Shown: piece after piece, positions 41,296-57,860 of the stretch | How positions within the stretch are numbered: the first letter of the stretch is position 1 | Layout of the letters: the number at the start of each line of letters is the position of its first letter | NCBI GenBank assembly: GCA_964489145.1 | Contig: CAZAXL010000004.1 | Coordinates: 8,176-72,175, forward strand | DNA: 64,000 nucleotides | Direction: 5' to 3' | Origin: an uncultured Gammaproteobacteria bacterium | Lineage (GTDB): Bacteria > Patescibacteriota > Microgenomatia > UBA8517 | The notes under the pieces: model-generated | Database searches by the model: none | Seen by the model: only the letters and a program-made list of their open reading frames with translations | Told to the model about the DNA's origin: nothing | Made by a program: the position numbers and the translations under genes

Positions 41296-41859
41296 CTACT
41301 GGCCCTCGACGGGATTTTCCGAAAAGGCTTGTCCAAAACTTGTTTTAAATTCATTAAAAGTTGTTGGTTTAAAATACCAAACCTCCAATACAATTCCCGA
41401 TCCCTGGTGTCCAATGTATGCAATTCCTTTATCAGGGTAAATATAAAGATTAAATCCGCTATATGAACTTGATTTATACAAAACATTTTTGTAATTGCCG
41501 TATTTTTCGTTTATGTCTGAAATTGTAATATCATCTTTTGATGAAACAATTTGTTTAACCAGAGTTAGTATTTCGGAATCTATAGAAAATTGATTATTAA
41601 AGTTTGGATTGTTTGATTCATATTCAAGTGTTGTGAGCGTATCGCTTCGGTTTTCTTTCACTGCGGTTCCCATTTGACCAACAACATCGTCTTTGGTGCT
41701 AATACCGGGCGTAAGACTGTTATATGAGGCTCCGGTTTCGGGAATCTTAGTTTTTTGGTTGGTGTCACCTCTACCGGAAAGGGAAATGTAGACAAGATAA
41801 GCTATCGATAACAGCGAAATTGCGGCGATTGCTAAAATTATTTTCTTGTTTTTAAACAT
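41296..41859 (-). CDS. Membrane-anchored extracytoplasmic hypothetical protein (last gene of T4SS-like operon)
   Basis: N-terminal TM (IILAIAAISLLSIAYLVYISL), 187 aa; 14-nt gap to upstream gene. Confidence 0.3.
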   Translation of the reverse strand: MFKNKKIILAIAAISLLSIAYLVYISLSGRGDTNQKTKIPETGASYNSLTPGISTKDDVVGQMGTAVKENRSDTLTTLEYESNNPNFNNQFSIDSEILTLVKQIVSSKDDITISDINEKYGNYKNVLYKSSSYSGFNLYIYPDKGIAYIGHQGSGIVLEVWYFKPTTFNEFKTSFGQAFSENPVEGQ

Positions 41860-41873
41860 ATTTATATTTTACC

Positions 41874-44723
41874 CTAATTGAAAATATATCTCATTAAAAA
41901 TTGGTAGTGAATTGGCCATTTTTGTTGGACGTTTCCACACCTAGGTTGGACAACATAGAGAGCTATTGCTTCCGGTAGAGATTCGCCATCGTTCCAATTT
42001 TGGGTAGCACTATAAAAACAATACGGCGACTCACTTGTTATTCCCGGATACTCTAAATACAACTGATAGAGTTTTGCGGTTTTATTTCCCCACGATAATG
42101 AATGTCCTAGTTCGTGAGAAAGGGTGTAAAGGGCATCTGCCTGATTTTTAACACCAAGTTTGTAAAAATCTACATAGCTTCCATGATTCCAGCCCCAAAA
42201 GCTTTCAAATGAGAAGGGATTGTACCTAAGAGGTAATGATGGATAAGACATACAAACTTTTGAGATGTAACTGCTATATTTTGAAACCATGACACCCCTT
42301 GCATTAACAATGTTGGCATAATATTCTGATGGCCAAGCGTTGGAATCGATATTTAAACATGCCGCCGGGGGAGTGCCTATTGATATAGAGGCCGCACCGG
42401 ACACTTCTTGTTGGGCAGCTTCTTCTGAATCTGCTATGACAGTAAAAGTATCTAAAATAACGGAATCTTTATAATCATTTCCGGAATAATTTTCGGTATA
42501 AGTAAAAACATAAGGGGCACTGGGAGATATTGAATCAGGAATGTCGGTGGACACTTCAGATGGGCAGGTTTTTGTCGGACCCGTCGAAAATATTTGGCAG
42601 TCATTTTTGAAGGCAATATTGGTTAAGGGGCTTTTCTTTGCGGTAACAGTAATGGTATAGCTAATTTGTAGTGGTAATTCAGTGTTTTTAAATGGTCCCT
42701 GAGGGGTTGCTACTTTGTCAACTTGAATGTGGGGGTTCGAACTTAAAGTTGTTATTTGTGTAGGAGGAACAACATAAGCGCCAGAGTTAATGATAAAAAG
42801 AATAAGAGCAACTACTACAGGGAAAACTAAAAGAGTTATCAAAACAGGTGTTCCAATTGAGACAAGAACCGCCCCTCCAAGGGTTGTAAAAAAACTGCCG
42901 ATACTTGTTCCGACAGTTCCCAGATTGATTGTTCCACCTGCGGCCGCCGATGCTAGGCCGAAAGAACCTATTCCGACCACAACTCCCACGAGAGGTCCCG
43001 CAATTGCGAAAGATCCAATTCCCAGAACAGCTCCTATTATGTAGGGGGCGTTTTTCTTGATTTTGTCCCAGGGGATTTTACTTGCAATCCAGCCAACTGC
43101 TGCACCAATTGCAGCTGTTACTACTGCGAGCGGACCACCAGCCAGTCCTAATGCCGCACCCGTTCCGGCACCGGTGGCTGCACCGCCGGCTGCTCCCACT
43201 GCGGTTCCAGTTGCCCCACCCGCTGCAACTCCGACACCTGTTCCAACGGCTTCACCAGCAATCACACCTCCAACCCCGGCAGTCACGACTCCGGTTTCTA
43301 AAACGGCGGTTCCCGCAATGGCACTGACCCCCTCGGTGGCGACAATTGCTGTACTAGCAACCTCAGTCGCAGCCGGTGTTATAATCGTAAAACCAAAATC
43401 AATTCCCAATGAGCTTCCCAGTCCTTCAAAAAAAGTTGAGGCTCCTGGTATTTGCTGGATAATAGGAATAAACACACCGTCCCCAAAGGGGGTGTACTTG
43501 GTTAGTCCAACAACAGAAAGAGCTTGTTGTCCAAGCTCACTGTTATATATTCCCGTAATTAAACTGTCGGAGGGCAATTTCATAATTTGAGAGTCGAGAA
43601 AATTACGGGCTTGTCCAAGCAGGAAACCTTGGGCTTGGTCTTTGCTAAATGAGGTCACACTGTCCAGTAAATTTGATTGAGATTGAAGAAGGTTTGAATA
43701 GCCGTCACTTAGTTGATGAAGATCAATCTCGTGTGTATATCCCTCTATCGGCTGGGTAGTGAGTGTAACTTTAATTTCATTTGGATCGGGTCCAAAAACC
43801 ACAGCAGCAAGATCTCCATTTACAGACGTAAGAATGTTTCTGCTTAGTTGAGTGGAATTATTAAAGAAGGCTAATTCTTGCGTAGCTGTTTTTAAAAAAT
43901 TCTGTACGTTTGCGTCGGAACTAATACTTTTGACGATATTGGTTTCTTTAGAGACAGACTTCAAAATAGCTGTTTGGAAATTTGTTTCTATTTGCTGTGA
44001 GGGGTTGTTAATTGCAAGCACTGTGTCATTTGCCGTTTTGTCAGATAAAACCGTAATTTCTTCTTCTGACAAATTTTTGGCAAATTCGCTCGAGTGAATT
44101 TTTGCCTTTACAATGTTGGAAATTTCTTTTCTGAAAGATTGAGGATATTTTTTGGCTTCCTCAATAAACTGTTTGGTGTTTTCATCCGGTGTTTGAGTTT
44201 GAGGCGCCTCAACTTTTACATAAATTTTTTTATTTTCCAAAAAACTTTGTATTTCTTTTTGTTTTTGTGTTTTTTCTTCAAAAGACTTCTTTATTCTTTC
44301 GATTTCTTGTTGTCTTTTATATGTTTCTTGTTTTTTTCTTAAAGCCTCCTCAACATTTTTTTGAGCACTTTTTTGGGTTTCTTTTAGTTCAGCTTCTCTT
44401 TTTTGCCGTTCGAGTTCCAGAAGTTCCCTCGCTTCTTTATCCGGCAGATTTGAATCAACCGGCTTTTCCTCTTGTTTATTTGAAGTGAGTGCTTCAACGG
44501 CAAGCTGTGCCCTTTTTATATTTTCCAGATCCCTTTCGGATTTAATTAAGACCCCTGTAAGACGACTTATGAAATCTATGAAATCTGCACGGTTTTTCCA
44601 GTTAAACTCACCCGAAACATAAGATTTGTCTGCCGCATAAATTGTGTCTTCGGGGAAAAAATGGGCAAATGCGTCTATTAAATATTTTGTGTTTTCGGAA
44701 GTCAAACTAATTTTATTTGCCAT
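41874..44723 (-). CDS. Large membrane protein of T4SS-like locus: N-terminal coiled-coil domain, Gly/Ala-rich multi-TM segment, C-terminal HExxH zinc-metallopeptidase-like domain
   Basis: Coiled-coil/charged region aa 80-190; ~180-aa G/A/V-rich hydrophobic block; TLSHELGHSL (HExxH) near C-terminus; immediately follows VirB4. Confidence 0.45.
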   Translation of the reverse strand: MANKISLTSENTKYLIDAFAHFFPEDTIYAADKSYVSGEFNWKNRADFIDFISRLTGVLIKSERDLENIKRAQLAVEALTSNKQEEKPVDSNLPDKEARELLELERQKREAELKETQKSAQKNVEEALRKKQETYKRQQEIERIKKSFEEKTQKQKEIQSFLENKKIYVKVEAPQTQTPDENTKQFIEEAKKYPQSFRKEISNIVKAKIHSSEFAKNLSEEEITVLSDKTANDTVLAINNPSQQIETNFQTAILKSVSKETNIVKSISSDANVQNFLKTATQELAFFNNSTQLSRNILTSVNGDLAAVVFGPDPNEIKVTLTTQPIEGYTHEIDLHQLSDGYSNLLQSQSNLLDSVTSFSKDQAQGFLLGQARNFLDSQIMKLPSDSLITGIYNSELGQQALSVVGLTKYTPFGDGVFIPIIQQIPGASTFFEGLGSSLGIDFGFTIITPAATEVASTAIVATEGVSAIAGTAVLETGVVTAGVGGVIAGEAVGTGVGVAAGGATGTAVGAAGGAATGAGTGAALGLAGGPLAVVTAAIGAAVGWIASKIPWDKIKKNAPYIIGAVLGIGSFAIAGPLVGVVVGIGSFGLASAAAGGTINLGTVGTSIGSFFTTLGGAVLVSIGTPVLITLLVFPVVVALILFIINSGAYVVPPTQITTLSSNPHIQVDKVATPQGPFKNTELPLQISYTITVTAKKSPLTNIAFKNDCQIFSTGPTKTCPSEVSTDIPDSISPSAPYVFTYTENYSGNDYKDSVILDTFTVIADSEEAAQQEVSGAASISIGTPPAACLNIDSNAWPSEYYANIVNARGVMVSKYSSYISKVCMSYPSLPLRYNPFSFESFWGWNHGSYVDFYKLGVKNQADALYTLSHELGHSLSWGNKTAKLYQLYLEYPGITSESPYCFYSATQNWNDGESLPEAIALYVVQPRCGNVQQKWPIHYQFLMRYIFN

Positions 44724-44725
44724 AG

Positions 44726-46546
44726 TTATTTACCGGAGTAGGGATTTGTTGCCACCCTAATTACTTCCTGCGGCTTGGTTGTTATAAGCTTGTTCTCATT
44801 CTCCGAGGCAACAATTCTGATTGGTGCGTGGTGAGGTCCGGCAAAGAAAATTCCTTCTCCGACGTTGGCAGCCAGAAGAAGTCTCTTTTCTCCCTGGGAA
44901 AGGTAAAAGACCTCGCCGATTTTATCAATTGCCGCCGGTGATTGCTTCAGGAGGACCTGCATAGCGCTGTTTGTGACAATAGCCTTTCCTATGTCCTGTC
45001 CGAGGAAGTCTTCGACGTCCTGGGTTATCGTAGTGAGTCCCAGATAGTATTTGCGGGCCCTCTTGACAACACTCCAAAGAAATTGCGCCGTATCTGGATA
45101 TCTCATCATGTGCCAAGCCTCGTCAACTATCAGAATTCTTTTCTTTAAATCTTTCTTAACCCTTGTCCAAATATAATCGAGAATTATGAACATGGCGATG
45201 GGGCGGAGTGCATCCTGCAGATCTTTAACGGAGAAAACAGTAAATGGGTTAGTGATATTAATATTCGTTTGCTGATCAAAAATTCCCACAAAACTTCCTT
45301 TGACAAATTTCTCGATTCTGGCGGCCAGATCCAGTGCGTCGGGGACCTCCATTCCAATAAGAGTTTTGTAAAGATCCTCCATTAAAGGCGGTTCTTTTCC
45401 TTGAGTATCAGGATCCATAGTTATTCCCTTGGCTTTATAGGTGATAATCAGGGCTCTATCCAAAAGTGCTTCCTGAGTTGGAGTAATTGCTCCCATGATT
45501 ACTTTCATCAGAGAATGAAGTGAGAGAATTTTAAGTCCAAGCTGGTTTTCTCCCTCCTCCCTGATTTGTGATAAGTCGAAGGGGTTTATTTTTGCGGTTG
45601 AGTTGTAGGAGAAAGAAATGTATTCGCCCCCCACAGCTTCAGCAATGGTTTTGTACTCGCTTTCCGGATCAATAACAATTGTTTCTATCCCAACCATGAG
45701 TGACCTAATTGCTTCCAGTTTGACAAAATAAGACTTGCCGGCGCCACTGGTTGCGAAGATTGTCATATTGGCGTTTTGCAGGCTAAATCTATCAAAAATG
45801 ATAAAAGACTCGTTTTGGGAATTTATACCAAAGAGCACCCCGCGGTCGCTTGAAAGCTCAGTTGAGGTTAAGGGAAAAGTTGTGGCTACGGAGGTTGTGT
45901 CCATATTTCTCGTAATGTTTAACCTGTCTATTCCAAAGGGAGCCGTTGCCGTAAAACCCTCGGACATATCAAGCATGGCGTGTTTACTGACAATCATTAA
46001 GGATCCAAGTTGGGATTCAACCTGTTTGGTTATTTGGTTAAGTTCCTCGGGGGAGTTGGCGGGAATTGTTATGTAAAATCCAAATTCATAAAAACGCTCG
46101 ATTCCCTTGACAAGTTGTTCCTGAAGAGCTTGTGCGTCTTCGAGTTTAGCCTGTGTAACGGGGTCGACGATTTTACCGCGTTCGATATCGGTCATTATCT
46201 CAGCTTCCATTTCGGCAATTTTACGTCTTAGATCATCGAGCACACTTTTTCCGTCTACAGGATAAATGTAAAAAGAAATATCGAGAGAAGTATCTATATT
46301 CACAACCGGCTCAAGCCATCCGGGTGCAACAAATCTCGGATAACCTCCAACAAAAATAGTCCTGAAGTAGATATCGTTTATTTTTAAATAATCAAAATCT
46401 ACCTCGACAGATTGAGGGGAAATCACATCCAATAAACTCATTTTTTGATTCATGACTGAAAAAGCCGGAGATATGATCTGCGGTTTAGCCTCGGTTTCCT
46501 GGATGGGAACCGTCGGTTGCTGGCCTTGTTTATTGTCTGGTTTCAT
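44726..46546 (-). CDS. VirB4/TraC/TrbE-family T4SS ATPase, ATPase (C-terminal) part
   Basis: Walker A FATSGAGKS, VirB4-type Walker B ILIVDEAWHMM, downstream TTITQD; 606 aa is ~200 aa short of full VirB4. Confidence 0.7.
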   Translation of the reverse strand: MKPDNKQGQQPTVPIQETEAKPQIISPAFSVMNQKMSLLDVISPQSVEVDFDYLKINDIYFRTIFVGGYPRFVAPGWLEPVVNIDTSLDISFYIYPVDGKSVLDDLRRKIAEMEAEIMTDIERGKIVDPVTQAKLEDAQALQEQLVKGIERFYEFGFYITIPANSPEELNQITKQVESQLGSLMIVSKHAMLDMSEGFTATAPFGIDRLNITRNMDTTSVATTFPLTSTELSSDRGVLFGINSQNESFIIFDRFSLQNANMTIFATSGAGKSYFVKLEAIRSLMVGIETIVIDPESEYKTIAEAVGGEYISFSYNSTAKINPFDLSQIREEGENQLGLKILSLHSLMKVIMGAITPTQEALLDRALIITYKAKGITMDPDTQGKEPPLMEDLYKTLIGMEVPDALDLAARIEKFVKGSFVGIFDQQTNINITNPFTVFSVKDLQDALRPIAMFIILDYIWTRVKKDLKKRILIVDEAWHMMRYPDTAQFLWSVVKRARKYYLGLTTITQDVEDFLGQDIGKAIVTNSAMQVLLKQSPAAIDKIGEVFYLSQGEKRLLLAANVGEGIFFAGPHHAPIRIVASENENKLITTKPQEVIRVATNPYSGK

Positions 46547-47226
46547 TTGTTTTCAAGTATTACCTCGGGCTCTTTTTTGACGGCTGGCTTTTCCGGATTG
46601 TAAATTGAATAAAACAAGTTTATAAGATCGGGGGTTGTAAGTTGTTTGAATTTAATTCCAAGTCGTCCTGCCTGACGGACAAGATGGTCGCGTCTTGGGT
46701 AAAGAGCAATTTTTGCTTTTTTAATAACATATGATTTAGTAAATGGAAGGGGTCCGGATAATTTCGTAACCGCGGCTATAGATTTTGCTACCCCAAGCTC
46801 AAGTGGAGACAGATAAAGAACGACAAAAAATCTTTTTCCTAAAACATTTTTCTTTTTAACGGATTCGGTTATAAAGTTTTTATAATCCTGCATGAGATTT
46901 GCAAGAAGGGGCTGAGTAATCTTTTTTGATTGCTCATCCAGAAAGTTTAGATATGATGAAATATCTTTCTTTTGGGTTAAAACAACAATTTGTACGGAGA
47001 AAGTAAGTGAATTTACCATGGCTGCATAAGCAGCAATTACGGCTTCCTGTTCTTTTTCCGAAAGGAGCCCAAAGTTTAGGGAACTTGACTCCATGATAAG
47101 TGCTGCTCCGCCATCTTTATAAATAACGATGTCATTGGTAATGTCGGCAACAGGTACAAAATCTTGAGTGGTTGAAGTTAAAGGTTTGTCGGGAATATTT
47201 ATAAATGGAATTTTAGGTATATTCAT
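46543..47226 (-). CDS. Probable VirB4 N-terminal domain encoded as a separate ORF (split VirB4)
   Basis: 227 aa, soluble; DIVIYKDGGAALIMESSSLNFGLLSEKEQE resembles VirB4/TrbE N-domain; ATGA overlaps with flanking genes on both sides. Confidence 0.4.
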   Translation of the reverse strand: MNIPKIPFINIPDKPLTSTTQDFVPVADITNDIVIYKDGGAALIMESSSLNFGLLSEKEQEAVIAAYAAMVNSLTFSVQIVVLTQKKDISSYLNFLDEQSKKITQPLLANLMQDYKNFITESVKKKNVLGKRFFVVLYLSPLELGVAKSIAAVTKLSGPLPFTKSYVIKKAKIALYPRRDHLVRQAGRLGIKFKQLTTPDLINLFYSIYNPEKPAVKKEPEVILENK

Positions 47227-48290
47227 TGGTTTGTTAGTATGTTTGTCGGTTGTTGCATTGGGGTTGCTTGAGTCGTCACAAGTGACCTTCCTTCTACCAG
47301 AATCGGGGGAATAATTTCTCCTTTGGCCTCAAAATTAACGGGCATGAATTGATATCCGTCCTTTTCACTGATAATGCCATATTGGCCGTTATCAAGAGCA
47401 GTGACCGCCATAAAGTGTCCGAGCTTGTTGCTTCTAAGGGCTCTAATGGGCCTGCCGTATTCGTCTCTAATCTCAATAATTGCTCCTTCAATAATTCTTC
47501 TTGCCTCGTCAACAACCTGACCCACCACTACGTTGGGATATGTAGGCGGGTTTGGGGGAGTGGCGTCAATTGAAAAAATGGCTTCTCTGGTAGAAACTAT
47601 TTCTTCCCCAGCAATTGTAGGATTAACATGCTGAGTCTGGACTTGCACTGTTTGAGAAACGGGTTGAACCCTTTCCTCGACGACAAGGTGGGTGGTCTGC
47701 ATGGGGGTTATTTTGACAGATGTGCTTACGGGAATCTCCAGTTTTTTGGGAGCAGGGGGGGGTGTTGGGACGGTGGGGGTTTGGGCTGTGGCCACAGGAG
47801 TTACAGGACCTTTAATGCCGGCAAATATACCGGCAAGGGCAGCCAGGAAACCCTGTTCCGCACCCTCCAATTTAGCAAGAGGTCCGGCCATTTGTTTAGC
47901 GCTTTCCAAATAGTTTTTGAGAGCAGCGTCTTGGTTTTGATTTCCCTGTTGGGGCGGAATATTGCTGACCGCAGTTTCATCTTGAAAAAACCTGGGAACC
48001 TCTTTTGTTTTTTTCCAGTTGAAAATTGTTGGAGAATAGATTGTTTTAAAAAACGATAAAATCCACTGTTCCAGGGGACGCTCCTCAAGAGGGACAAAAG
48101 CCATGGCGGCGCCCAAAATTACAGAGACAATTGCAAACGGCCATTTGATTATTCCAATTAAAGGAGATGAATAAAAAATTAAACCAACCAAAAACCCCCC
48201 CGCAAGCTGAAAGAATTGCTTGAGAGTCATATCTCCCACCAACCGGAATTGGTAAGAAGATATATTTTGCGGAATTGGATGTTGTTCCAT
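47223..48290 (-). CDS. PrgI/VirB3-like membrane protein with ~250-aa C-terminal extension (first gene of operon)
   Basis: DMTLKQFFQLAGGFLVGLIFY...two TM resembles PrgI-family PLTLRQF..L..G block; directly upstream of VirB4 as in monoderm T4SS. Confidence 0.5.
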   Translation of the reverse strand: MEQHPIPQNISSYQFRLVGDMTLKQFFQLAGGFLVGLIFYSSPLIGIIKWPFAIVSVILGAAMAFVPLEERPLEQWILSFFKTIYSPTIFNWKKTKEVPRFFQDETAVSNIPPQQGNQNQDAALKNYLESAKQMAGPLAKLEGAEQGFLAALAGIFAGIKGPVTPVATAQTPTVPTPPPAPKKLEIPVSTSVKITPMQTTHLVVEERVQPVSQTVQVQTQHVNPTIAGEEIVSTREAIFSIDATPPNPPTYPNVVVGQVVDEARRIIEGAIIEIRDEYGRPIRALRSNKLGHFMAVTALDNGQYGIISEKDGYQFMPVNFEAKGEIIPPILVEGRSLVTTQATPMQQPTNILTNQ

Positions 48291-48431: not shown

Positions 48432-51152
48432 TTGTTATATAATTTACATATGCCCGACGGTATGTCACCTGAAAACAAACCACAATCAAGTATTGAATTT
48501 ATGAAATCCCTCGGAGGACCGACCAGACTTCCTGCTAATGAAATAACAGGCCAGGCTGCGAAAGATTTTCCTCAACCTGAATCAAGAGCTAATGTTCCGG
48601 ATATAAGGATGCAGGTGGGCAATGGTGATGAAGAAAGTAATGCAGCAGCGGAGCGTGCAAAGCTGGAATATTTAATACGAATGGGTGAGCTTATGGGTTC
48701 AGAAGAGGGTGGGGGTTATTTAAATAAGTTTATAGACAACATTCGGGGTTTATCCAAAAAAGTAGAAGACCCCACAACTCACGAGTCAAGAAATAAAACC
48801 GAGGAAGAGAAAGATAAAGTTAGGGAGAATATTGCAGAGGCTTACGTTCATCTGTGCCATGCAGAGCTTGATGAAATAAACACAATAAATAAATATCTTG
48901 AGGATTTGAAAAACCCATTCCCTTACGATTCAAGGTGGACAATCCAGACTTTTGAAAGGATCGAAGAAAGAATAAATGGAGTACTTAGGGAAAAGAAAGG
49001 TAGGGCAGTTGATGGTGAAGGTAGGGCGCTACTCCATATGTACAAAAGGGATCTGAAGTGGGCGCTAGCCACAGCAAAAATAAACGAAGCAATGGGGCCA
49101 GCCTACGAGCTTTATTTTGACGGTGAGTTAGAAATGCAGCGCCTAAGAACTCCGCATAGCGAAGTTAAAGCATCAGATTTCATGAGTGCTTTTCAGGGAC
49201 ACGAAACCGGTTTTGAGAAGGATGTACTTGATGAAGAAAATAAATTAATACAGAAAACACTTTTGAAGATTCCACCCGAATATCTTAAAGATGTGGACGG
49301 AGAAAACACTTTTAAAGAAAAGACTTTGGTGGAAAAGGCAATAGAATATCAAGATTTATATAGCACACTGTCGCTCGATGCTTTCGCTTCGGCCCAAAAA
49401 AATCTTGAATATGGGTTCGGTGCTGGAGACGATAAAGAAGCTGGAAATCATTATAAAAACATAGATTATGTTACCTTTCGCTTAATGAATGAACTTTTTA
49501 GCTCTTCTAAGGCAGTTGAGGATGGAAAAGTTGTGGAAGCAGAGGACGAGAATTTAGTTTATGTTAATCGAAAAGGAGAGGGATTTAATGTTAAAGCTCA
49601 TCCGATTTTGAACCCTCACAATATGCAGAGGGATGACGATCTTGCCTACCGTCAATATTATTCGAGGATGCATGAGCTTATGCTTCATTGGAATGATGCT
49701 TACAGTAGTCAAATTGATGAAGTTAGGAATGTTTCAGACTTGTCAAAAGACGATATAGACGAAAAAATTAGAGCAATTGCCGACGGAATTGTAGCTAAAG
49801 CGGATAAAAGAGCTAAATCACAAAGAACTTTAGACGAAGGCCATCCGTATGACAGGTTAATAGATACTGTAATTAATTCTCAAATTAATCTGGAACGCGG
49901 AATTCTTGCAAGTGGAGAGTATGGCTGGGGTTGGTCTTATAATGAGAAGACTGATAAAAGAGGAAATGTTGTGGTAGTAAGGAAATCTGAACTTGGAAGC
50001 ATATATGATAACCACGATCTCACAACTATGGTTTATTGGGCTAGGCACATTATTGACTACGATAACATGGGGGAGACACGGGGAGCTCTTCTGTTTCCTA
50101 CAATTGGCAGTTACAGAGAAAGGTGGATGAGCGAACCTCCATATTGGAAGCCGGAATTGACTGAGTTTGCCCAAAATGATAACACTCTTCTTCGAAGATT
50201 AGGGTTGGAAGGCAGTTATGGGATTCTTTCCCAGAAAAATTTCCTGGAGGATAAAGTTGGTAGAAAAACGTACTTTAAGGGGGCGAAAGGGTGGCAAGAG
50301 CAAAAATATGGCAAGTTTGATGAGTCTTGTGCAAAGTATATCAAAGAGAACGCCTGGGCATTTGTTACTTGTTGGTTAAACGAACCTGGTAAAGGGAGCG
50401 ATGAATACAATCTTGTCTTCCCAGTCTTTTTACCGACAATGATTGAAGATGTTAATTTTTGGAGATCTGTTAGCCTCCAGGGACCGTCTGAAAAAATTAA
50501 TACTTACCCTCTTGCAGATCCTAAAAAGGGTGATCCAAAAAGTCTTTGGAATGAAAGGATGGAAGGGAAAAAGTTGTCAGAAATGCGGTGGGAATATATG
50601 TCCAAGTATAAATACAATTGGACAATGGTGAACCTGGATCAGATGGAGCGCTGGTTTGGGCCAATGGTAACGCCACACGATTTCAATAAGTCAACCGCGC
50701 CGGAATTTGAAAAACACTACAACATGCCAGGTGGTAAAAGTGAAAAAGAGGCAGGGAAAAGAGGAAGATTGGGAGCAAGGGGCTCACGTTGGGTGGATGG
50801 AGTTATTAGAGCAACGGTTTTGGCCCAAAACAAGGTGCTATCTGCGGTCCAGTTAAGTGGAGTTATGGGTGTGGATGTTTCTGCGCTTACAAATGTAAAT
50901 GAGAGAAATTCTTCCTTGAATAAGGAATTGGATACATGGAGATTAAATTGGATAGCCCCTTGGATAAACACAATGCTAGATATGCCCTCCGATGTGCGCA
51001 AGGTTAAAAATTATGGAGGAACAGCTGCTCAATCACTTCTGGTGTCTTACCTTCAAGTTCGAAGAATTATAGCCTCTGCTGTTGCCCACAGTAATGGTCA
51101 AAAGCTGGACGTTAACAAATCTATAGACCAAATAGAAGAAGGATTTACTTAA
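48432..51152 (+). CDS. Large soluble hypothetical protein (906 aa), plus-strand gene inside the minus-strand T4SS-like locus
   Basis: No TM, no recognisable motifs; TATAAT lies inside the first codons, so true start may be MPDGMSPEN at 48450. Confidence 0.4.
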   Translation: MLYNLHMPDGMSPENKPQSSIEFMKSLGGPTRLPANEITGQAAKDFPQPESRANVPDIRMQVGNGDEESNAAAERAKLEYLIRMGELMGSEEGGGYLNKFIDNIRGLSKKVEDPTTHESRNKTEEEKDKVRENIAEAYVHLCHAELDEINTINKYLEDLKNPFPYDSRWTIQTFERIEERINGVLREKKGRAVDGEGRALLHMYKRDLKWALATAKINEAMGPAYELYFDGELEMQRLRTPHSEVKASDFMSAFQGHETGFEKDVLDEENKLIQKTLLKIPPEYLKDVDGENTFKEKTLVEKAIEYQDLYSTLSLDAFASAQKNLEYGFGAGDDKEAGNHYKNIDYVTFRLMNELFSSSKAVEDGKVVEAEDENLVYVNRKGEGFNVKAHPILNPHNMQRDDDLAYRQYYSRMHELMLHWNDAYSSQIDEVRNVSDLSKDDIDEKIRAIADGIVAKADKRAKSQRTLDEGHPYDRLIDTVINSQINLERGILASGEYGWGWSYNEKTDKRGNVVVVRKSELGSIYDNHDLTTMVYWARHIIDYDNMGETRGALLFPTIGSYRERWMSEPPYWKPELTEFAQNDNTLLRRLGLEGSYGILSQKNFLEDKVGRKTYFKGAKGWQEQKYGKFDESCAKYIKENAWAFVTCWLNEPGKGSDEYNLVFPVFLPTMIEDVNFWRSVSLQGPSEKINTYPLADPKKGDPKSLWNERMEGKKLSEMRWEYMSKYKYNWTMVNLDQMERWFGPMVTPHDFNKSTAPEFEKHYNMPGGKSEKEAGKRGRLGARGSRWVDGVIRATVLAQNKVLSAVQLSGVMGVDVSALTNVNERNSSLNKELDTWRLNWIAPWINTMLDMPSDVRKVKNYGGTAAQSLLVSYLQVRRIIASAVAHSNGQKLDVNKSIDQIEEGFT

Positions 51153-51161
51153 ATTGTATTT

Positions 51162-52889
51162 CTAACGCTCCCCGGGCCCTTTCTGGCCGCCGGTACCTGG
51201 TTGTCCGCCTTGTTTTTGCATACTCTTCAAGATATCATTCAACACTTTCATTGCTCCTCGTCCTCCACCCCTGCTTTCAATTGCTTGCTGCAACCTTCCC
51301 GCTGCATATGTCGTTCCAGCTTCTGCTCCATATTTCTGTACACCGGAGGCAACTCCACTAAACGGTCCCAGAGCCTCACCAATTCCTGTTCCTGCAAATT
51401 CTTTGCCTGCCATAAATGATTCGATAGCCTCAGATATTTTTGGTATCATCATGATTATACCAACACTCATCAACAAAAATGCAATTGCCGTAGCAGAAGC
51501 GGGGTTTCCTAGCATTGGAGGTCCCCAAGCATTGCAAAAATCTAGAGTATTAGCAGGGTCAAAAAATTCAATTCCTGTAAATTTACTTATCAACCCCAAC
51601 TCCAATCTTAGTACGGGTTTAAGTATGCTCATGAGACCGTTGTTGCAAATAGCGCCGTATACAGATGTGGCCATGGAGTATCCCAGTAGGAAAAAAGATA
51701 TATAAATGAATATTCCGGTAAGGGGAAATACTAGTAGTTTTGAAAACAATTTCTTGAGCCAGCTACTAAAACCCGACTGTGGAAAGAGTGTGCCCATGGT
51801 GATCTGGAGTGGGGCAATTATTATAAGGCCATACACTGCCGCTAGGTTTTTAAAAAGCATAAATATGACTCTGACAGTGCTTACAATAAGTATAAGTAGC
51901 AAGATTATTGTGAAGATAATGAGAAGCAGGCTAAAAAGTGTTGAAGAAATATGGAAACCTGAAACCGATGCTAATAAAGCAACGACCGCAGCAACAAAAA
52001 ATAATATTATATATGCGATAAAATAAAAAAATATTGCGATACCACCATCTTGTAGAAGTGGGATAGACCCGTTGATGAAAGCAAAAATAATTTTTCCCTC
52101 TGCCACCTTCAAAAAATTTGTTGGAATAAAGGACGACATCATAGCAGAAAATACACCCATAATGACATATATTAGGTCAATCATGAATCCAGCAATCGCG
52201 AATGAAAATGTTACTAAAATAAGCGAAATAACTATTTTAGGTAAAGCAGATTGAACACTAATTACTAGTTGAGGGGATAACTTAACCCTCAACATGATCA
52301 TAAAAGCGAAAACAATTGTTACTATTACGAACAGGAAGAAGGAGAAATTTCTGGTTAGTCCCCAAAGTGGTCTAATTACTGTTAATACCGTATAACCATA
52401 TCCGGTGGTTTGGGCGTGAACTTCCGTAACCGGGTCCAGTTTTCTTATTATGTTTTTGACATAACTAATGCCAGAAATTGGTCTATCAGCAAAAATCTGG
52501 GAAGCAATAGATGGTTGATGTTGTGTGTTTTCGGTTAAACCAAGGTCGGCTGTAGAATCATTTATAAAATTAGTGAGACCATCAACACAAGCATCTAGTT
52601 GAATATTTGACGCAACGGCCCCCATAAAACAACTGGCAACATCAGTATTGCCTCCGGTTACCAAGTTAATAAACATAGAAGGAAGGCTGTAGATAATCCA
52701 TTGAACCTGAGCTGCGGTATAACGCTCTCCAAAAATTTCATTTTGATTTGAATTGTCGTATACCTTTAGGTACCATTCAGGGAGAGATTGGTTGTACCAA
52801 GTTGTTTGAGCCTTGGCCTGAGAGAATGGGCCGAGGGAAATAAGAAAAGTAGTGCCGATTAGGATGGATATGAGCAGTTTTTTAAACAT
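51162..52889 (-). CDS. Polytopic membrane protein, VirB6/TrbL-like (inferred)
   Basis: Signal peptide, ~150-aa extracytoplasmic N-domain, >=6 TM, Gly/Pro/Gln-rich C-terminal tail (GGQPGTGGQKGPGER) as in TrbL; position between surface protein and VirB3/4. Confidence 0.4.
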   Translation of the reverse strand: MFKKLLISILIGTTFLISLGPFSQAKAQTTWYNQSLPEWYLKVYDNSNQNEIFGERYTAAQVQWIIYSLPSMFINLVTGGNTDVASCFMGAVASNIQLDACVDGLTNFINDSTADLGLTENTQHQPSIASQIFADRPISGISYVKNIIRKLDPVTEVHAQTTGYGYTVLTVIRPLWGLTRNFSFFLFVIVTIVFAFMIMLRVKLSPQLVISVQSALPKIVISLILVTFSFAIAGFMIDLIYVIMGVFSAMMSSFIPTNFLKVAEGKIIFAFINGSIPLLQDGGIAIFFYFIAYIILFFVAAVVALLASVSGFHISSTLFSLLLIIFTIILLLILIVSTVRVIFMLFKNLAAVYGLIIIAPLQITMGTLFPQSGFSSWLKKLFSKLLVFPLTGIFIYISFFLLGYSMATSVYGAICNNGLMSILKPVLRLELGLISKFTGIEFFDPANTLDFCNAWGPPMLGNPASATAIAFLLMSVGIIMMIPKISEAIESFMAGKEFAGTGIGEALGPFSGVASGVQKYGAEAGTTYAAGRLQQAIESRGGGRGAMKVLNDILKSMQKQGGQPGTGGQKGPGER

Positions 52890-52922: not shown

Positions 52923-55313
52923 TTAATTTGGGTAATTAGGTAGTGCTATTCCCGGTGCAATGACGGAATAAATAAAGTTCAAATCGTTCGTATAACTTGA
53001 TATTTTATCTTTTTCGTTTTGATTTAGTGGGGAGCAGTGTCCAAACCAAAACATTGAAATAAAGGTACTCATATCCTTTTTACCACACTTGGCAGCGTAT
53101 GAACTTGGTAAATTTAAAAAGAAGTCTAGTTGTTTACTAAAATTATTAGTTGGTACACTTTGATTACCGTGGATGCCAAAATCTTCGACAGGATAGTTTA
53201 CAGCCTCGTAATTACTTGCATCGGATTCATGTATCCAGATGGCAAGAGTAAATATTGGATCTATATTTTTGTTTTTTGACCTCTGAATAACATCATTATT
53301 ACATTCTTTGAAGTAAGGTCTGCCGGGACCCGTCGCATACCAGATCTTGGTTATATTTTCCGCCTCGGTTTTGTTTAAACCATTCACAGCAATTTCCGGA
53401 ATGGTTTGATTGCAATTTATTTCACCGCTACTGCTCGAATCTTCATCAGAATTCGGTGCAAAAGAAATTGCGTCACCAAGCCCTTTGGGTCTGAGAGCGG
53501 TTTGGATACCATTTAAGAAATATTCGGAAATTCCTCCCAGATGGGGGAGTTTTAAATCGGTGTTTGATTGAGAGACATTCGTGCCTGAATAATTAATATT
53601 AGTAGATCCCGGCATATCCATTATCTGCCCGACGCTTCCAGCCGTGTTGGTTTTTGGGAAAATTCTCTTGAAAACCGCCATTGGACCCGCCACAAGGCGC
53701 GACCAAATATCGTCGGCGAGAGGAATTTTTGAGGTAGTTGAGAGGTTGATATAAACATCTTTTTTACACTCCTGGGTAGAAGTGGGCGCGGAGGTCGGGT
53801 TAGCATCAGGATAGAGACAATCTGCTCGGCATTCGTTGGGCGCGCCTCCGAAATAAGTACATCTTTCATAGCAACCGGTGGGGATAGGGGCGTCAAAAGT
53901 ACAAGAAAAATTGGCTGTATAGGAAAGATCCCCCGTCAGCTGTGTGGCAAAAAGATCATCTCCCTTATTTGAACGCACCTCAACGGTATTACAGGAAGTT
54001 TCCGATGCAACATTTGTCGGACTCCCGACTTTATCCTCCCCTTTTGGAGTATAGGTATCTTGCAGGAGAGAACTAAGTTGGTCAGATTCTTCCATGTGGG
54101 AGAAAAAAAGAGTAGCGGGATTTTGATTTGAGAATGCAATATTTTTTACGATTACATTTGAGTCTGACGTGCCTTGCGCGGATGATACTTGGTCGATGGA
54201 AATATTTCCTTCGACATCCTCAGTTGAAGAGAGGGGAATGTAGGAAAAGAGATCCGAATATTCATTCGAAATAAGAATATTATTCAAGCACAAAAGTATT
54301 TTAGGAAAAGGAGTAATAATACAAGAGTTTCCCTGCCATTCCTTATACGCTTTTTGATATGTTAAAGAGTCAAAGGGCTTGCCGCTTGGATCAACTCCCC
54401 AGGAAAGCGGAGGGACTCGATACGGCCAAGCTTTATTCTGGTCTAATGCCTGTGTGATAATATCTCCCGGAATAGATGGAAATGTATTAAGAAAAAGATC
54501 GAGAAGTGAAATGCCGGCGTTTTGTAGGGTATTTACAATCGAAAGATTTCCATCCCAGTTTGTTAATCTCCATTTCTCTTCACCCGGACAATCGGTGGCA
54601 ACTGTTTGACCGACGCCCAGGTTCTCCAAACCCCATTTAAGGAAAGATGGAATTAGGCTGGAGTTGATTTCTTTTTTTGTGCAAACCACAACCTGGTCGT
54701 GTCTTGTGACTTTTGCGTTTTTTATTTGCGTAAACCTATTTGCGTTTTGGATTTCCAACGGAAGAAGCTTGGCTAAGGGGCCAGAAAAATTTACTAATGA
54801 ATCATCGTCACTCTTATCAGGATATTCTTTTTTGTTTGTTACTCCTCCAAGATACCAACTTACGTAATCATTCATTTTGTCGGCGTCTGAAAGCGCGTCT
54901 TCGGTGTTGCCCATAAAAGGCAGGTCCGCACCGCTTAAATCAATCGTTACTTTGTGGCTGGGGACAGACACGTTGTATGTGCAATAAACTTTACTTCCTT
55001 TTGTGGTACAATTTCCGCCTCCTCCTGTGTATGTTTTTTCGATGGTTTCCTTCAAGGTGAGATTGTTTCCGCAAAAAGTTGCCTCACTGGCCGTTTGAGA
55101 AGTGCATTGGGTATTTGCTTGGTATGGACGAAGAGAGTTAAATTCAGTATCGGAAACATTTCCACAGGAGATATTTGTGTTAGCAGGAACTTGGGCATTT
55201 ACAGTTCCAATTTCTAATTTCAAATTTCTAATTTCTAATAAAATTACAATTAATAAAATTACAAGAACTGAAAGTTTAAAATTCGAGATTTTAGATTTGA
55301 GATTGAGAATCAT
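52923..55313 (-). CDS. Large Cys-rich secreted/surface protein (796 aa), possible C-terminal lysozyme-like domain
   Basis: N-terminal TM/signal anchor, many Cys pairs, C-terminal FTLAIWIHESDASNYEAV resembles transglycosylase ES motif (weak). Confidence 0.35.
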   Translation of the reverse strand: MILNLKSKISNFKLSVLVILLIVILLEIRNLKLEIGTVNAQVPANTNISCGNVSDTEFNSLRPYQANTQCTSQTASEATFCGNNLTLKETIEKTYTGGGGNCTTKGSKVYCTYNVSVPSHKVTIDLSGADLPFMGNTEDALSDADKMNDYVSWYLGGVTNKKEYPDKSDDDSLVNFSGPLAKLLPLEIQNANRFTQIKNAKVTRHDQVVVCTKKEINSSLIPSFLKWGLENLGVGQTVATDCPGEEKWRLTNWDGNLSIVNTLQNAGISLLDLFLNTFPSIPGDIITQALDQNKAWPYRVPPLSWGVDPSGKPFDSLTYQKAYKEWQGNSCIITPFPKILLCLNNILISNEYSDLFSYIPLSSTEDVEGNISIDQVSSAQGTSDSNVIVKNIAFSNQNPATLFFSHMEESDQLSSLLQDTYTPKGEDKVGSPTNVASETSCNTVEVRSNKGDDLFATQLTGDLSYTANFSCTFDAPIPTGCYERCTYFGGAPNECRADCLYPDANPTSAPTSTQECKKDVYINLSTTSKIPLADDIWSRLVAGPMAVFKRIFPKTNTAGSVGQIMDMPGSTNINYSGTNVSQSNTDLKLPHLGGISEYFLNGIQTALRPKGLGDAISFAPNSDEDSSSSGEINCNQTIPEIAVNGLNKTEAENITKIWYATGPGRPYFKECNNDVIQRSKNKNIDPIFTLAIWIHESDASNYEAVNYPVEDFGIHGNQSVPTNNFSKQLDFFLNLPSSYAAKCGKKDMSTFISMFWFGHCSPLNQNEKDKISSYTNDLNFIYSVIAPGIALPNYPN

Positions 55314-55350: not shown

Positions 55351-55632
55351 TTAGGGGAGGACTATATTGAAGTTTGTTACATCAACCCCTGTGATATTTG
55401 TGATCAACAAAAGAATTAGATAGGAAAGAAGAATAATGATAAGTCCAGCAATTGCGGAAGTTAGGGTTTTTTTGGCGCTCTCGACAGCTTTTGGGTCACC
55501 ACCGGAAGTGATAAATTTGAACCCCCCAACTACAAGAAGAACAAAGAGAACAATTCCGGCAAAACCTAAAGCATAGCCTACAACCCTTTGGAACAGAACC
55601 CCGAAATCCTCAATTGTTGCAACATCTTCCAT
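55351..55632 (-). CDS. T4SS pilin-like small two-TM protein, paralog 8 (VirB2/TrbC-like)
   Basis: TM1 - SGGDPKAVESAKKTLTSAIAGLIIIL - TM2 shared family motif. Confidence 0.5.
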   Translation of the reverse strand: MEDVATIEDFGVLFQRVVGYALGFAGIVLFVLLVVGGFKFITSGGDPKAVESAKKTLTSAIAGLIIILLSYLILLLITNITGVDVTNFNIVLP

Positions 55633-55677
55633 AACAACACCATTTTAGAGTAAACAGCGAAGTCGAGCAAGAGAGAC

Positions 55678-56025
55678 TTACTGAGGAATGGTAGGAATGG
55701 TCAGGACGTTTAACACATCAAGCCCAAAAAAGACCTTGATGAGAGCCAGAATTGCCCAGGCAGCAAATACGATAACAAGTCCAACTAAGGCCGCTGTTAT
55801 CTGATTTCTTGCAGCTTCTGTTTGAGCCTTGTCTCCACCAGAGGCGATCCAGCGAATTCCACCTATTACTAAAATGAAGAAGAATATGATTGCAGCTATA
55901 ACAACTGAAAGTCTTATTAGACCGGAAACGATTCCAGAAACCGTAAGATTACCCAACGTAGAAAACTGCCCAACTGGCTGAAGATCTATAGGTGCGTTAT
56001 CGGCGACGGCGAGTAATTTTTGCAT
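55678..56025 (-). CDS. T4SS pilin-like small two-TM protein, paralog 7
   Basis: ASGGDKAQTEAARNQITAALVGLVIVF motif between two hydrophobic helices. Confidence 0.5.
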   Translation of the reverse strand: MQKLLAVADNAPIDLQPVGQFSTLGNLTVSGIVSGLIRLSVVIAAIIFFFILVIGGIRWIASGGDKAQTEAARNQITAALVGLVIVFAAWAILALIKVFFGLDVLNVLTIPTIPQ

Positions 56026-56040
56026 ATCTTATTGTGTATA

Positions 56041-56403
56041 TTATCGAATTATTAGATTACCTATGTCAAGAGTCAATATTGAAACACCAATAAAGCCTTC
56101 TATAAGTTTGACGATAGCAAACACAGAAAACATAATAACGAGTCCGATAATAGCGCTCGTGATTTTTCCTCTTGCGTTCTCAAGAGATTGTTTATCTCCA
56201 CCAGAGGATATCCATTGAATCGCTCCAATAATTAACATAAAGAAAAAAATTACAACCCCAACAACGAAGGCTAAAGTTATAAGGTTGGGGATGAAGGTCT
56301 GAAAAAAACTTAAACCGCTTGCGTTATCACCCAAGCCCCCCAATACTGGATTTTTAATTTCAGAAGCTCCCCCTGTTGCTCCCGCTAGTAAATTATTTGA
56401 CAT
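56041..56403 (-). CDS. T4SS pilin-like small two-TM protein, paralog 6
   Basis: SSGGDKQSLENARGKITSAIIGLVIMF motif. Confidence 0.5.
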   Translation of the reverse strand: MSNNLLAGATGGASEIKNPVLGGLGDNASGLSFFQTFIPNLITLAFVVGVVIFFFMLIIGAIQWISSGGDKQSLENARGKITSAIIGLVIMFSVFAIVKLIEGFIGVSILTLDIGNLIIR

Positions 56404-56411
56404 TTTTATGT

Positions 56412-56801
56412 TTATGGATTGACAGTGTTGCCTGTAATAACACTAAAGAGTGATGGAAAATTTAAAATATCGGGAATACCAAGGAGTTCTCCTACCAGTT
56501 TTATGGCAAATATTGAAACAATAACGATGATAAGCCCAATTATTCCGTTTACAATCCTTTTTCTTGCAGATTCGACTGCGGCCTTATCCCCGCCAGAAGA
56601 CATGTAACTAATTGCACCGGTAATAAATAGGAAAACCGACCATATGATTGCTATAACAGTTATTATTCCTATAAACGAAGAAAGGAAGTTTGTAAAGATA
56701 ATATCTGCATTACCGGCCTCGCTTCCTTGGAGTCCAAGTTTGCCAAACCCTTTAAATCCGCCATCTGGAGCTATTTTAATTTCTGCCAATAAATTTTTCA
56801 T
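56412..56801 (-). CDS. T4SS pilin-like small two-TM protein, paralog 5
   Basis: SSGGDKAAVESARKRIVNGIIGLIIVI motif. Confidence 0.5.
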   Translation of the reverse strand: MKNLLAEIKIAPDGGFKGFGKLGLQGSEAGNADIIFTNFLSSFIGIITVIAIIWSVFLFITGAISYMSSGGDKAAVESARKRIVNGIIGLIIVIVSIFAIKLVGELLGIPDILNFPSLFSVITGNTVNP

Positions 56802-57151
56802 TAAAGTGTTGGAATTACCGGATTAAGAATAAAATCCCATTTGCCAAAAATCAATTGACCAAAGAGTGCTGCGAGAACAAAGGCTCCTGCTGAAAATGCA
56901 AGTCCTAATGCTGTTTGCCAAATCTTTGCCCAAGCTCCTGCAACTTTTTTGGGGTCATCCCCTGCGGACATAAATGCGTATCCGGCCAAAACAAAATTAA
57001 ATAAAGCATATATTGAGGCTCCTATTATCAAAATCCAAATAACCTTTTGTATCAATGCTCCGATAGCCACACCCGGTTCCCCACTATACTTTTCCAAACC
57101 CGATGGGGGAGGAATGACTCCAAAAGGATTTGCTGCTAATAATTTTGTCAT
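56801..57151 (-). CDS. T4SS pilin-like small two-TM protein, paralog 4 (most diverged)
   Basis: SAGDDPKKVAGAWAKIWQTALGLAF variant motif; start overlaps stop of the upstream paralog. Confidence 0.45.
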   Translation of the reverse strand: MTKLLAANPFGVIPPPSGLEKYSGEPGVAIGALIQKVIWILIIGASIYALFNFVLAGYAFMSAGDDPKKVAGAWAKIWQTALGLAFSAGAFVLAALFGQLIFGKWDFILNPVIPTL

Positions 57152-57152
57152 T

Positions 57153-57461
57153 TTAGAAAATAAGATTTTGTACCCCCAAAAGAGAACTAACCAATTTTAC
57201 TATCCAATAGGATGTAAATACAATAACAAAGCCGATTACGGCCGAAGTAATAGTTTTTTTAGCTTGCTCGGCTTTCTGGGGATCGCTTTGTCCTGCGCTT
57301 CCTATCATGCCGATCCCTCCCAGGATAAAAAAGAAAAGGAGAATGAGACCCGCAAGAACAAAAGCAATATTTAAGAAAAGTGAAACCACAGAACCTATCC
57401 CTGTAATGTTTTTGAAAGCACTTAAACCAGATTTTCCTAGAAAGGCATCACCTATATTCAT
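57153..57461 (-). CDS. T4SS pilin-like small two-TM protein, paralog 3
   Basis: SAGQSDPQKAEQAKKTITSAVIGFVIVF motif. Confidence 0.5.
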   Translation of the reverse strand: MNIGDAFLGKSGLSAFKNITGIGSVVSLFLNIAFVLAGLILLFFFILGGIGMIGSAGQSDPQKAEQAKKTITSAVIGFVIVFTSYWIVKLVSSLLGVQNLIF

Positions 57462-57526
57462 ACTACAATTTTATTGTAAAGCCATTTTATTATAATAGAC
57501 CTTCTGAAGCAAGTCAGTGTAGATTG

Positions 57527-57859
57527 TTATTTTCCACCGAAGATTTGACTAAAAAAAGTACCTTCAAGACCAAGAACCTGCCCAAAAATTTGGACGATTG
57601 TGAAGGCAAAAAAGACAATAATAAAACCAATCACGGCATTCGTGATTTTTGTTTGAGCAGATTGCATAGCTTTGGGGTCTCCTCTTGAGGTCATCATTTG
57701 CAGGCCGCCGATCACTAGATAAATCAGAAGTGCGACTCCGGCTGCACCAAATATATATGGAAGTATCATACTAATGACATCCCCAACTTTTGCTTCTCCG
57801 CCAAATTTAAAATTTGGAAATGCGCGTGTTTGTATATCGTCAAAATTTTGTGCAAGCAT
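57527..57859 (-). CDS. T4SS pilin-like small two-TM protein, paralog 2
   Basis: SRGDPKAMQSAQTKITNAVIGFIIVF motif; start moved to MLAQNF (the track's longer ORF overlaps paralog 1). Confidence 0.5.
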   Translation of the reverse strand: MLAQNFDDIQTRAFPNFKFGGEAKVGDVISMILPYIFGAAGVALLIYLVIGGLQMMTSRGDPKAMQSAQTKITNAVIGFIIVFFAFTIVQIFGQVLGLEGTFFSQIFGGK

Positions 57860-57860
57860 G

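Follow-up and report, generated by a model that had tools for sequence, protein, structure and literature searches.

The window analysed here is a stretch of 64,000 nucleotides (nt; GenBank assembly GCA_964489145.1, contig CAZAXL010000004.1, positions 8,176 to 72,175 of the forward strand), which carries a locus for a type IV secretion system (T4SS). The gene under study is an open reading frame (ORF) of 949 codons plus a stop codon, starting with ATG, at 41874-44723 on the minus strand. As the preliminary description of this DNA had stated, it is associated with the T4SS and directly follows virB4. Indeed, only 2 nt separate the TAA of virB4 from its ATG, and the two genes are translated in tandem. 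We call this position slot X and its product the slot-X protein. Further downstream, a gene for a membrane-anchored protein of 187 amino acids (aa), p187, starts 14 nt after slot X, and beyond it lie dnaN and dnaA on the opposite strand. The order PrgI-TrsD-VirB4-X-p187-dnaN-dnaA is kept in 9-10 of 12 related genome loci, which were found from an alignment of 8 sequences, and is conserved across Woesebacteria; the closest relative genome among these loci is that of Candidatus Woesebacteria UBA8517. An identical slot-X protein, with the same neighbours, occurs on at least 23 groundwater metagenome contigs. In Patescibacteria, T4SS loci are described as MPF-FATA-like and adjacent to dnaA, with TrsD and VirB2 arrays and no relaxase (PMC12102498), and the layout of the window locus agrees with this description. 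The ORF is the slot-X component of a chromosomal, dnaA-proximal T4SS locus in a genome of Woesebacteria (Patescibacteria, also called the candidate phyla radiation, CPR).

The slot-X protein is made up of the following parts, listed from the N- to the C-terminus. Confidence values are predicted local distance difference test (pLDDT) scores of a full-length AlphaFold2 model based on 78 sequences, the mean of which is 76.

44481-44723, minus strand: N-terminal alpha/beta domain (aa 1-81; modelled aa 9-81), pLDDT about 85-93, conserved in the family
44241-44438, minus strand: single 66-residue Lys/Glu-rich helix (aa 96-161), 18.5% Lys and 22% Glu
43581-44228, minus strand: helical domain (aa 166-381), pLDDT 90-95
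43131-43406, minus strand: low-complexity linker rich in Gly, Ala, Thr and Val (aa 440-531), 26% Gly and 25% Ala, pLDDT about 30
42774-43130, minus strand: hydrophobic glycine-zipper helices (aa 532-650), assigned as a membrane anchor by hydropathy; five helices in the model (aa 532-648), at low confidence
42762-42794, minus strand: IINSGAYVVPP (aa 644-654), the motif with which the last helix ends on its outer side; N646, A649 and P653 invariant in 78 sequences
42378-42728, minus strand: immunoglobulin (Ig)-like beta-sandwich spacer (aa 666-782), pLDDT 90-95, with the conserved Cys pair C709/C720
41877-42371, minus strand: gluzincin-type metallopeptidase domain by predicted fold (aa 785-949)
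42102-42116, minus strand: HELGH motif (aa 870-874; H870, E871, H874)
42012-42014, minus strand: Y904, 97% conserved, 10 residues before E914
41970-41984, minus strand: ESLPE (E914 to E918); E914 100% and E918 99% conserved

A C-terminal metallopeptidase motif had been noticed in the preliminary description, and it proves to be the most constant feature of the protein family. HELGH lies inside helix 861-878 (helix 80-97 of a model of the domain alone), and 0.005 HExxH motifs are expected by chance from the composition of the slot-X protein. Among 1.84 billion cluster representatives, a profile built from the final ~170 aa recovered 427 clusters (at 50% identity) at E<=1e-3, of which 303 at E<=1e-10. 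In these matches the domain is always C-terminal, and HExxH is retained in 161 of 162 family representatives. In view of this retention and of the low expectation, a chance motif was rejected. Both histidines, the intervening glutamate and a further glutamate 40 residues beyond the second histidine are 100% conserved in 146 full-length domains. This latter residue, E914, is also invariant in a set of 69 sequences and is placed on helix 915-924 (helix 131-143 of the domain model). Hence the downstream third zinc ligand, which the preliminary description had proposed to look for, has a strong candidate, and the motif is conserved in orthologs together with it. The domain also contains two pairs of cysteines that are 92-100% conserved, putatively C789-C824 and C902-C929, and the conserved cysteines amount to six residues in all. 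The combination of parts had been thought unusual, a view that has to be given up: the full set of parts recurs in at least 68 clusters at 50% identity.

The structure predicted for the domain alone, from a 46-sequence alignment, is confident (pLDDT 92.5; predicted TM-score, pTM, 0.90). Its best Foldseek matches in the PDB are PPEP-1/Zmp1, PPEP-2 and PPEP-3, followed by anthrax lethal factor and M1 aminopeptidases, with TM-scores of 0.57-0.66. All top matches, in the PDB as well as in the viral library BFVD, are zincins; those in BFVD are generic ones, with no endolysins, which is neutral as to a peptidoglycan substrate. With a hidden Markov model (HMM) of the family, M34 members are the only PDB sequences reached, PPEP-1 at a borderline E of 9e-4 and anthrax lethal factor at E 0.035-0.13. 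In the HMM alignment with PPEP-1, HELGH falls on HETAH (H142/E143/H146), E914 on the zinc ligand E185 and E918 on E189. The distance from H874 to E914 is 40 residues, vs. 39 in PPEP-1. The catalytic Tyr178 of PPEP-1 stands 7 residues before E185; Y904 stands 10 before E914, the two being 2 columns apart in the HMM, so that Y904 is a candidate counterpart of Tyr178. According to these models, the C-terminal domain is of the gluzincin type (zincin clan MA(E)), which bears out the zincin fold expected earlier. By homology with PPEP-1 and anthrax lethal factor, H870, H874 and E914 would bind zinc and E871 would activate the water molecule, with the assistance of Y904 and of E918, the latter as a putative helper of the ExxxD/E type. 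The HExxH helix and the Glu-bearing helix of the M34 (ATLF) peptidases align with those of the slot-X domain, and in both a conserved Tyr precedes the Glu ligand. However, sequence identity is 10-14% and the Pfam model ATLF (PF07737) gave no match with the full protein or with eight domain sequences, even at E<=10. Moreover, M34 enzymes are soluble secreted protein endopeptidases, whereas the slot-X domain has two conserved disulfide-type Cys pairs and always forms the C-terminus of a membrane protein of a T4SS locus. Sequence comparison thus makes it a distant relative of M34, outside the family by curated criteria.

For the N-terminal 440 aa, neither Pfam nor the PDB sequences nor the fold search gave a match, and the Foldseek matches of the full-length model stem from the Ig-like domain alone; the N-terminal alpha/beta domain taken by itself is likewise without PDB or Pfam match. 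From the long coiled-coil N-domain of the preliminary description, one Lys/Glu-rich helix can be retained; it is flanked by the alpha/beta and helical domains, and the description does not hold for the N-part as a whole. The Gly/Ala-rich hydrophobic segment is found as described (20% Gly and 19% Ala over aa 440-650), the model dividing it into the linker and the five helices. Very low model confidence spans aa ~388-531, and residues 446-531 are probably disordered, judging from the model. Hydropathy and the helices at aa 532-648 agree with the claim of a membrane protein. As for the Ig-like spacer, its Foldseek matches are E-set folds of the RhoGDI/ApaG/Spo0M kind, and the spacers of relatives give weak DUF7507 matches.

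The orientation of the protein in the membrane is suggested by several features. Cysteines are nearly absent N-terminal of aa 655 (a mean of 0.2 per protein) and frequent after it (mean 8.3), with conserved pairs. The conserved Lys-rich loop at aa 549-559 has a net charge of +2.7 across 78 sequences, the final hydrophobic helix carries no charge and the stretch beyond it is acidic. Short homologues from Woesebacteria consist of an Arg-rich N-terminus, a single hydrophobic helix with an IINSGAY-type motif, and then the HExxH domain. Finally, one relative has a J-domain in its N-part. Because of these features, the C-terminus is placed on the outer face. The first ~530 residues, free of cysteine, are probably cytoplasmic, and from charge, Cys distribution and domain types we infer an N-in/C-out topology, with the Ig-like spacer and the gluzincin domain outside. 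The slot-X protein has no signal peptide. A signal-peptidase-type cleavage site could lie within IINSGAYVVPP, between A and Y of SGA-Y, although the variants INNSAY and INQSAY of relatives fit the rule less well. The same motif is the junction at which homology between the cassette variants described below stops.

Relatives of the scaffold do not all end in the same enzyme. A homologue search with a scaffold profile gave 9 proteins, candidates being saturated by low-complexity words, and the comparison was made on 27 full-length homologues. These are conserved to about aa 655 or 795 and have a variable C-terminus, which may be of the HExxH type (including HETTH and HESGH), a Peptidase_M23 domain (clear or degenerate), a CHAP domain or an Amidase_2 domain. 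The nearest scaffold relatives often carry a different enzyme, as three pairs illustrate.

HExxH protein P0010 vs. M23 protein P0009: scaffold identity 77%
HExxH protein P0005 vs. Amidase_2 protein P0022: scaffold identity 73%
HExxH protein of the window vs. M23 protein P0003: scaffold identity 59%

Whether the enzyme is M23, M23-like, CHAP or Amidase_2, these variants are all encoded at the same position, between virB4 and dnaN. In two further lineages the HExxH domain is fused to other enzymes. P0107 (L019:8001-10319, another CPR lineage) is a protein of 772 aa encoded two genes after virB4, and is composed of a weak N-terminal T4SS_pilin-like segment, a canonical SLT domain (QRESSGNP...GLMQ), an Ig-like domain and the HExxH domain. 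P0116 (L020:8001-10844, a third lineage) joins a NAGPA glycosidase to the HExxH domain and is encoded right after a nine-gene pilin array. Because M23, CHAP and Amidase_2 enzymes share both slot and scaffold with the zincin, and because of these SLT and NAGPA fusions, a wall-lytic role for the zincin is supported. The suggestion of wall remodelling made in the preliminary description has thereby gained weight.

The change of enzyme also involves the next gene. In HExxH loci, this gene belongs to the p187 family (mutual E 1e-28 to 1e-70; tblastn matches in 9 further loci). In three M23 loci, it belongs to an unrelated family of ~335 aa (E 1e-36 to 1e-80), and in the Amidase_2, CHAP, M23-like and fourth M23 loci the next genes are other proteins again. 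Partner proteins of different types resemble each other in their N-terminal membrane anchor only. Hence, the downstream families track enzyme type and not relatedness of the scaffold. At the DNA level, cassette boundaries were located by comparing two pairs of loci. L021 (HExxH) and L017 (M23) share 77.5% of their nucleotides along a 5.7-kb stretch that ends at codon ~637 of X; nothing is shared over the rest of X and the next gene, and identity returns to 74.8% from dnaN on. The pattern is the same for L022 (HExxH) and L018 (Amidase_2), with a break at codon ~606. In both pairs the break falls right after INSGAY(I/V)(V)PP, while between the window ORF and P0003 it comes after the Ig domain, at about aa 795-800. 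The extracellular module of X and the next gene are thus exchanged as a unit on a stable scaffold. Exchange of this kind marks polymorphic toxin/immunity systems as well as pairs of an enzyme and its cognate partner. No paper was found that describes it for the T4SSs of Patescibacteria.

Owing to this co-exchange, p187 is probably a cognate partner of the enzyme, that is, an inhibitor, an immunity protein or a regulator. Members of its family combine a membrane anchor at the N-terminus with a domain of ~150 aa, in which G52, G64, W161, Y162 and F163 are invariant. Homologues are found in L005-L012, L015, L021 and L022, and among the loci examined they adjoin HExxH-type modules only. p187 has no PDB match, and BamE (0.0014) and DUF4309 (0.0057) come up below threshold in 1-2 of 11 members.

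The other genes of the T4SS locus, on either side of slot X, are listed below.

41296-41859, minus strand: p187, membrane-anchored, 187 aa
44726-46546, minus strand: VirB4 ATPase, 606 aa (NCBIfam conju_CD1110, 3.6e-110; Pfam P-loop_TraG)
46543-47226, minus strand: TrsD/TraC-like protein, 227 aa, resembling the N-terminal region of VirB4
47223-48290, minus strand: PrgI (VirB3-like) protein with a C-terminal CarboxypepD_reg-like domain
48432-51152, plus strand: ORF of 906 aa without family match, in the middle of the T4SS cluster on the opposite strand
51162-52889, minus strand: polytopic protein of 575 aa, VirB6 candidate
52923-55313, minus strand: exported Cys-rich protein of 796 aa, directly after the pilin array
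55351-58268, minus strand: array of ~8 small two-helix VirB2-like pilins

Two proteins of the array were tested and both match PF18895 T4SS_pilin (3e-9 and 5e-8); the region is a VirB2-like pilin array typical of Patescibacteria T4SS loci. The 796-aa protein holds the position that P0116 occupies in its own locus. For the C-terminus of this protein (IWIHESDASNY), the idea of an SLT-like lysozyme was dropped, there being no Pfam or PDB match. A VirB6/TrbL/PrgH identity of the slot-X protein was also rejected, since it has no corresponding Pfam or NCBIfam match and the candidate at 51162-52889 is a separate protein. That the protein is built into the channel was not borne out either.

We lean, with a little better than even confidence, towards a VirB1-like role for the slot-X protein, as a T4SS-dedicated, extracytoplasmic, zinc-dependent peptidase that opens the envelope for the pilus or channel, p187 being its cognate inhibitor or regulator. 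In such a mechanism, the cytoplasmic and membrane parts of the scaffold would hold the enzyme at the T4SS. The glycine-zipper helices would anchor it, and the disulfide-stabilised Ig-like spacer would display the gluzincin domain outside. There the enzyme would cut peptide bonds of the envelope beside the machine, the likeliest substrate being the peptides of peptidoglycan. The cut would let a VirB2-type pilus or a channel cross the wall, as VirB1-like hydrolases (PrgK, TraG) do in other monoderm T4SSs; the wall in question may be that of the producer or that of a host. In this picture, peptidoglycan as the substrate, the part played by p187, docking to VirB4, topology and zinc ligation are inferred features.

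Several observations weigh against this reading. The fold and profile matches are weak, with Foldseek E-values of only ~5e-3 and 22.5 bits for PPEP-1 in the HMM search, and none of the Pfam or NCBIfam models reaches threshold for the slot-X protein, the sub-threshold matches being the zincins Reprolysin_5, DUF6055 and Mx1. The membrane helices are modelled at low pLDDT, so that 1, 3 or 5 passes are possible. The SLT and NAGPA fusions are single cases among ~160 representatives. The peptidoglycan peptidases known so far are mostly LAS enzymes (M15/M23/M74), NlpC/P60 or CHAP enzymes and not HExxH zincins. Among characterised relatives, PPEP-1 and anthrax lethal factor come closest, and both have proteins as substrates. 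This last point leads to an alternative that we consider improbable, in which the domain is a protein-specific endopeptidase whose target is a pilin precursor of the VirB2 type, a surface protein of the host, or an adhesin or S-layer protein, and which so matures or releases parts of the T4SS or of the attachment apparatus. Its closest fold and profile relatives are M34 protein endopeptidases, the locus contains seven or more VirB2-like pilin genes, and in one lineage the HExxH domain ends the protein encoded after a nine-gene pilin array. However, M23, CHAP and Amidase_2 enzymes stand in the same slot, and an amidase is no substitute for a pilin protease; the fusion with an SLT lytic transglycosylase suggests peptidoglycan as substrate, and the M34 similarity is so remote that it says little on specificity. 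Still further from our expectations, and very improbable, is a non-catalytic role, either as a wall-binding or regulatory domain or as a chance motif in a VirB6/VirB8-like channel protein. It can draw on the LytM and CHAP domains of PrgK, described as regulatory and not catalytic (PMC12857230), and on the polytopic look of the membrane segment. It has to face catalytic residues that are 97-100% conserved over 146-162 divergent representatives, the chance expectation already given, the separate 575-aa VirB6 candidate and the lack of any match to a VirB6 or VirB8 model.

Frequent cassette swaps between close relatives fit conflict or host adaptation better than pure housekeeping, and this too counts against a plain VirB1-like role. 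We regard as possible, though rather unlikely, that X is a polymorphic effector directed at a host or a competitor and paired with an immunity gene: the scaffold would be docked at the T4SS, the enzyme would attack the host envelope where epibiont and host are in contact, and p187 would protect the wall of the producer. The enzyme might first be released at the invariant IINSGAY/VPP junction. The conserved scaffold with its varying C-terminal enzyme, the downstream families that follow enzyme type, and the 75-78% colinearity, interrupted precisely where the extracellular part of X and the next gene lie, with the break at the invariant junction motif, all speak for it. Moreover, metallopeptidases resembling anthrax lethal factor are known to serve polymorphic toxins as C-terminal toxin modules (PMC3482391), and passages in two reports describe bacteria-killing T4SSs that deliver peptidoglycan hydrolases with cognate immunity proteins (PMC6759196; PMC6536674), which also counts in favour of an effector. 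On the other hand, the tether to the producer membrane consists of ~12 residues and one Ig domain, and the enzyme would therefore reach little past the wall of its own cell unless cleaved. No orphan cassettes were seen, nor any recognisable secretion or cleavage signal, and p187 does not detectably resemble any known family of immunity proteins or inhibitors. In addition, a cognate regulator of a self-directed autolysin, as in the VirB1-like role that we favour, predicts the same co-swapping. In its most pointed form the idea becomes an essential, origin-proximal T4SS with a built-in polymorphic "warhead", consisting of a zincin of the lethal factor/PPEP kind and its protector p187, swapped by recombination at IINSGAY-VPP and aimed at the host envelope; this form we find slightly more doubtful still.

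The VirB1-like role can be set against known systems. Like the slot-X protein, the VirB1-like hydrolases PrgK of pCF10, TraG of pIP501, Orf14 of Tn916 and CD419 are encoded in the T4SS operon; they are anchored in the membrane and have an intracellular N-part (long in PrgK), one or more extracellular catalytic domains and a modular make-up that varies between systems (PMC12857230). The pairing of SLT with HExxH in P0107 parallels that of SLT with CHAP in TraG. However, the catalytic domain of the slot-X protein is an HExxH gluzincin by prediction, whereas those of VirB1-like hydrolases are SLT, muramidase, CHAP, NlpC or LytM domains. No similarity to VirB1-like hydrolases could be detected in the N-part of ~530 aa or in the Gly/Ala-rich multi-helix anchor, and the swapping of the module together with the downstream gene is a further difference. 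In contrast, the relatives with M23, CHAP or Amidase_2 in the same slot do contain the domains by which VirB1-like hydrolases are classically defined.

In Saccharibacteria, Southlakia epibionticum ML1 offers a comparison by locus layout and fold description. SEML1_0007, whose gene directly follows virB4, is, like the slot-X protein, a protein of ~1000 aa (1113 aa) encoded together with PrgI, a TrsD-like protein and VirB4 near dnaA/dnaN (PMC10633639 supplement; PMC12102498), and it is essential for epibiotic growth by transposon sequencing (Tn-seq; PMC10633639 supplement; PMC12102498). Its C-terminus has, however, a Hedgehog/DD-peptidase (LAS) fold and not a zincin fold. The next gene has lysozyme and Cys-peptidase folds and is essential too (PMC10633639 supplement), and this parallel adds to the support for a VirB1-like, envelope-lytic role of the zincin module. 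Polymorphic toxins (CdiA-CT, Rhs, LXG; Zhang et al. 2012) and the effector/immunity pairs of the Xanthomonadales X-T4SS share with the slot-X protein a conserved N-part, a junction motif, a variable C-terminal enzyme and a co-varying next gene. Peptidoglycan hydrolases and metallopeptidases resembling lethal factor (PMC3482391) are known payloads of these systems. Unlike in polymorphic toxins, the slot-X scaffold is a membrane-anchored, conserved gene of an essential chromosomal T4SS locus.

The T4SSs of Patescibacteria are the first for which essentiality to their own carrier was shown, and their role at the epibiont-host interface is unknown (PMC10633639; PMC12857230). According to surveys, these bacteria mostly lack a canonical VirB1 in the vicinity of virB4 (PMC12102498). 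On a VirB1-like role for X, this gap would be filled for Woesebacteria/Microgenomatia by a conserved scaffold that follows virB4 and presents an interchangeable wall-active enzyme, one widespread version of which is the unannotated gluzincin family of 427 clusters. A wall-hydrolase slot in a T4SS is of a known kind; as far as found, what is new here is its filling by a gluzincin and the exchange of the cassette together with the next gene. This is relevant to the way in which ultrasmall epibionts breach their own wall or that of their host, and cassette type is a possible genomic marker, perhaps correlated with wall chemistry or with host range. If the T4SS did carry a host-directed warhead, cassette type would reflect host range, an effector/immunity system would be fused to a core T4SS component, and the zincin would be the first HExxH-type wall-breaching enzyme of any T4SS.

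Some further observations concern the neighbouring genes and the related loci. The 906-aa ORF on the opposite strand (48432-51152) is kept in the related loci L005 and L006, and a gene of 900 aa is found in L001-L004. In the PrgI/VirB3-like protein, the PrgI region comprises aa 5-83 and is followed by an extension of ~270 aa, unusual for VirB3, with a weak CarboxypepD_reg-like beta-sandwich at aa 255-314. VirB4 is divided over two genes (44726-47226, minus strand), the TrsD/TraC-like protein of 227 aa and the ATPase of 606 aa, whose frames overlap by 4 nt; this split TrsD/VirB4 arrangement has been reported as typical of Patescibacteria. Five metagenome-assembled genomes (L007, L009, L013, L014 and L016) bear the titles "uncultured Gammaproteobacteria/Pseudomonadales" or "Anaerolineales" and show a PrgI-TrsD-VirB4-X-dnaN-dnaA synteny of the Woesebacteria type; it is likely that the records are misnamed or that the bins are contaminated. 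One of them, L007, has virB4 as a single ORF of 1202 aa (L007:2111-5719), with an insertion of ~596 aa inside the Walker A motif (GAGKS/ISYSD...VHN/SYFVK). This insertion carries LAGLIDADG-like motifs; judging from its sequence, the T4SS ATPase seems to harbour an intein with a homing endonuclease.

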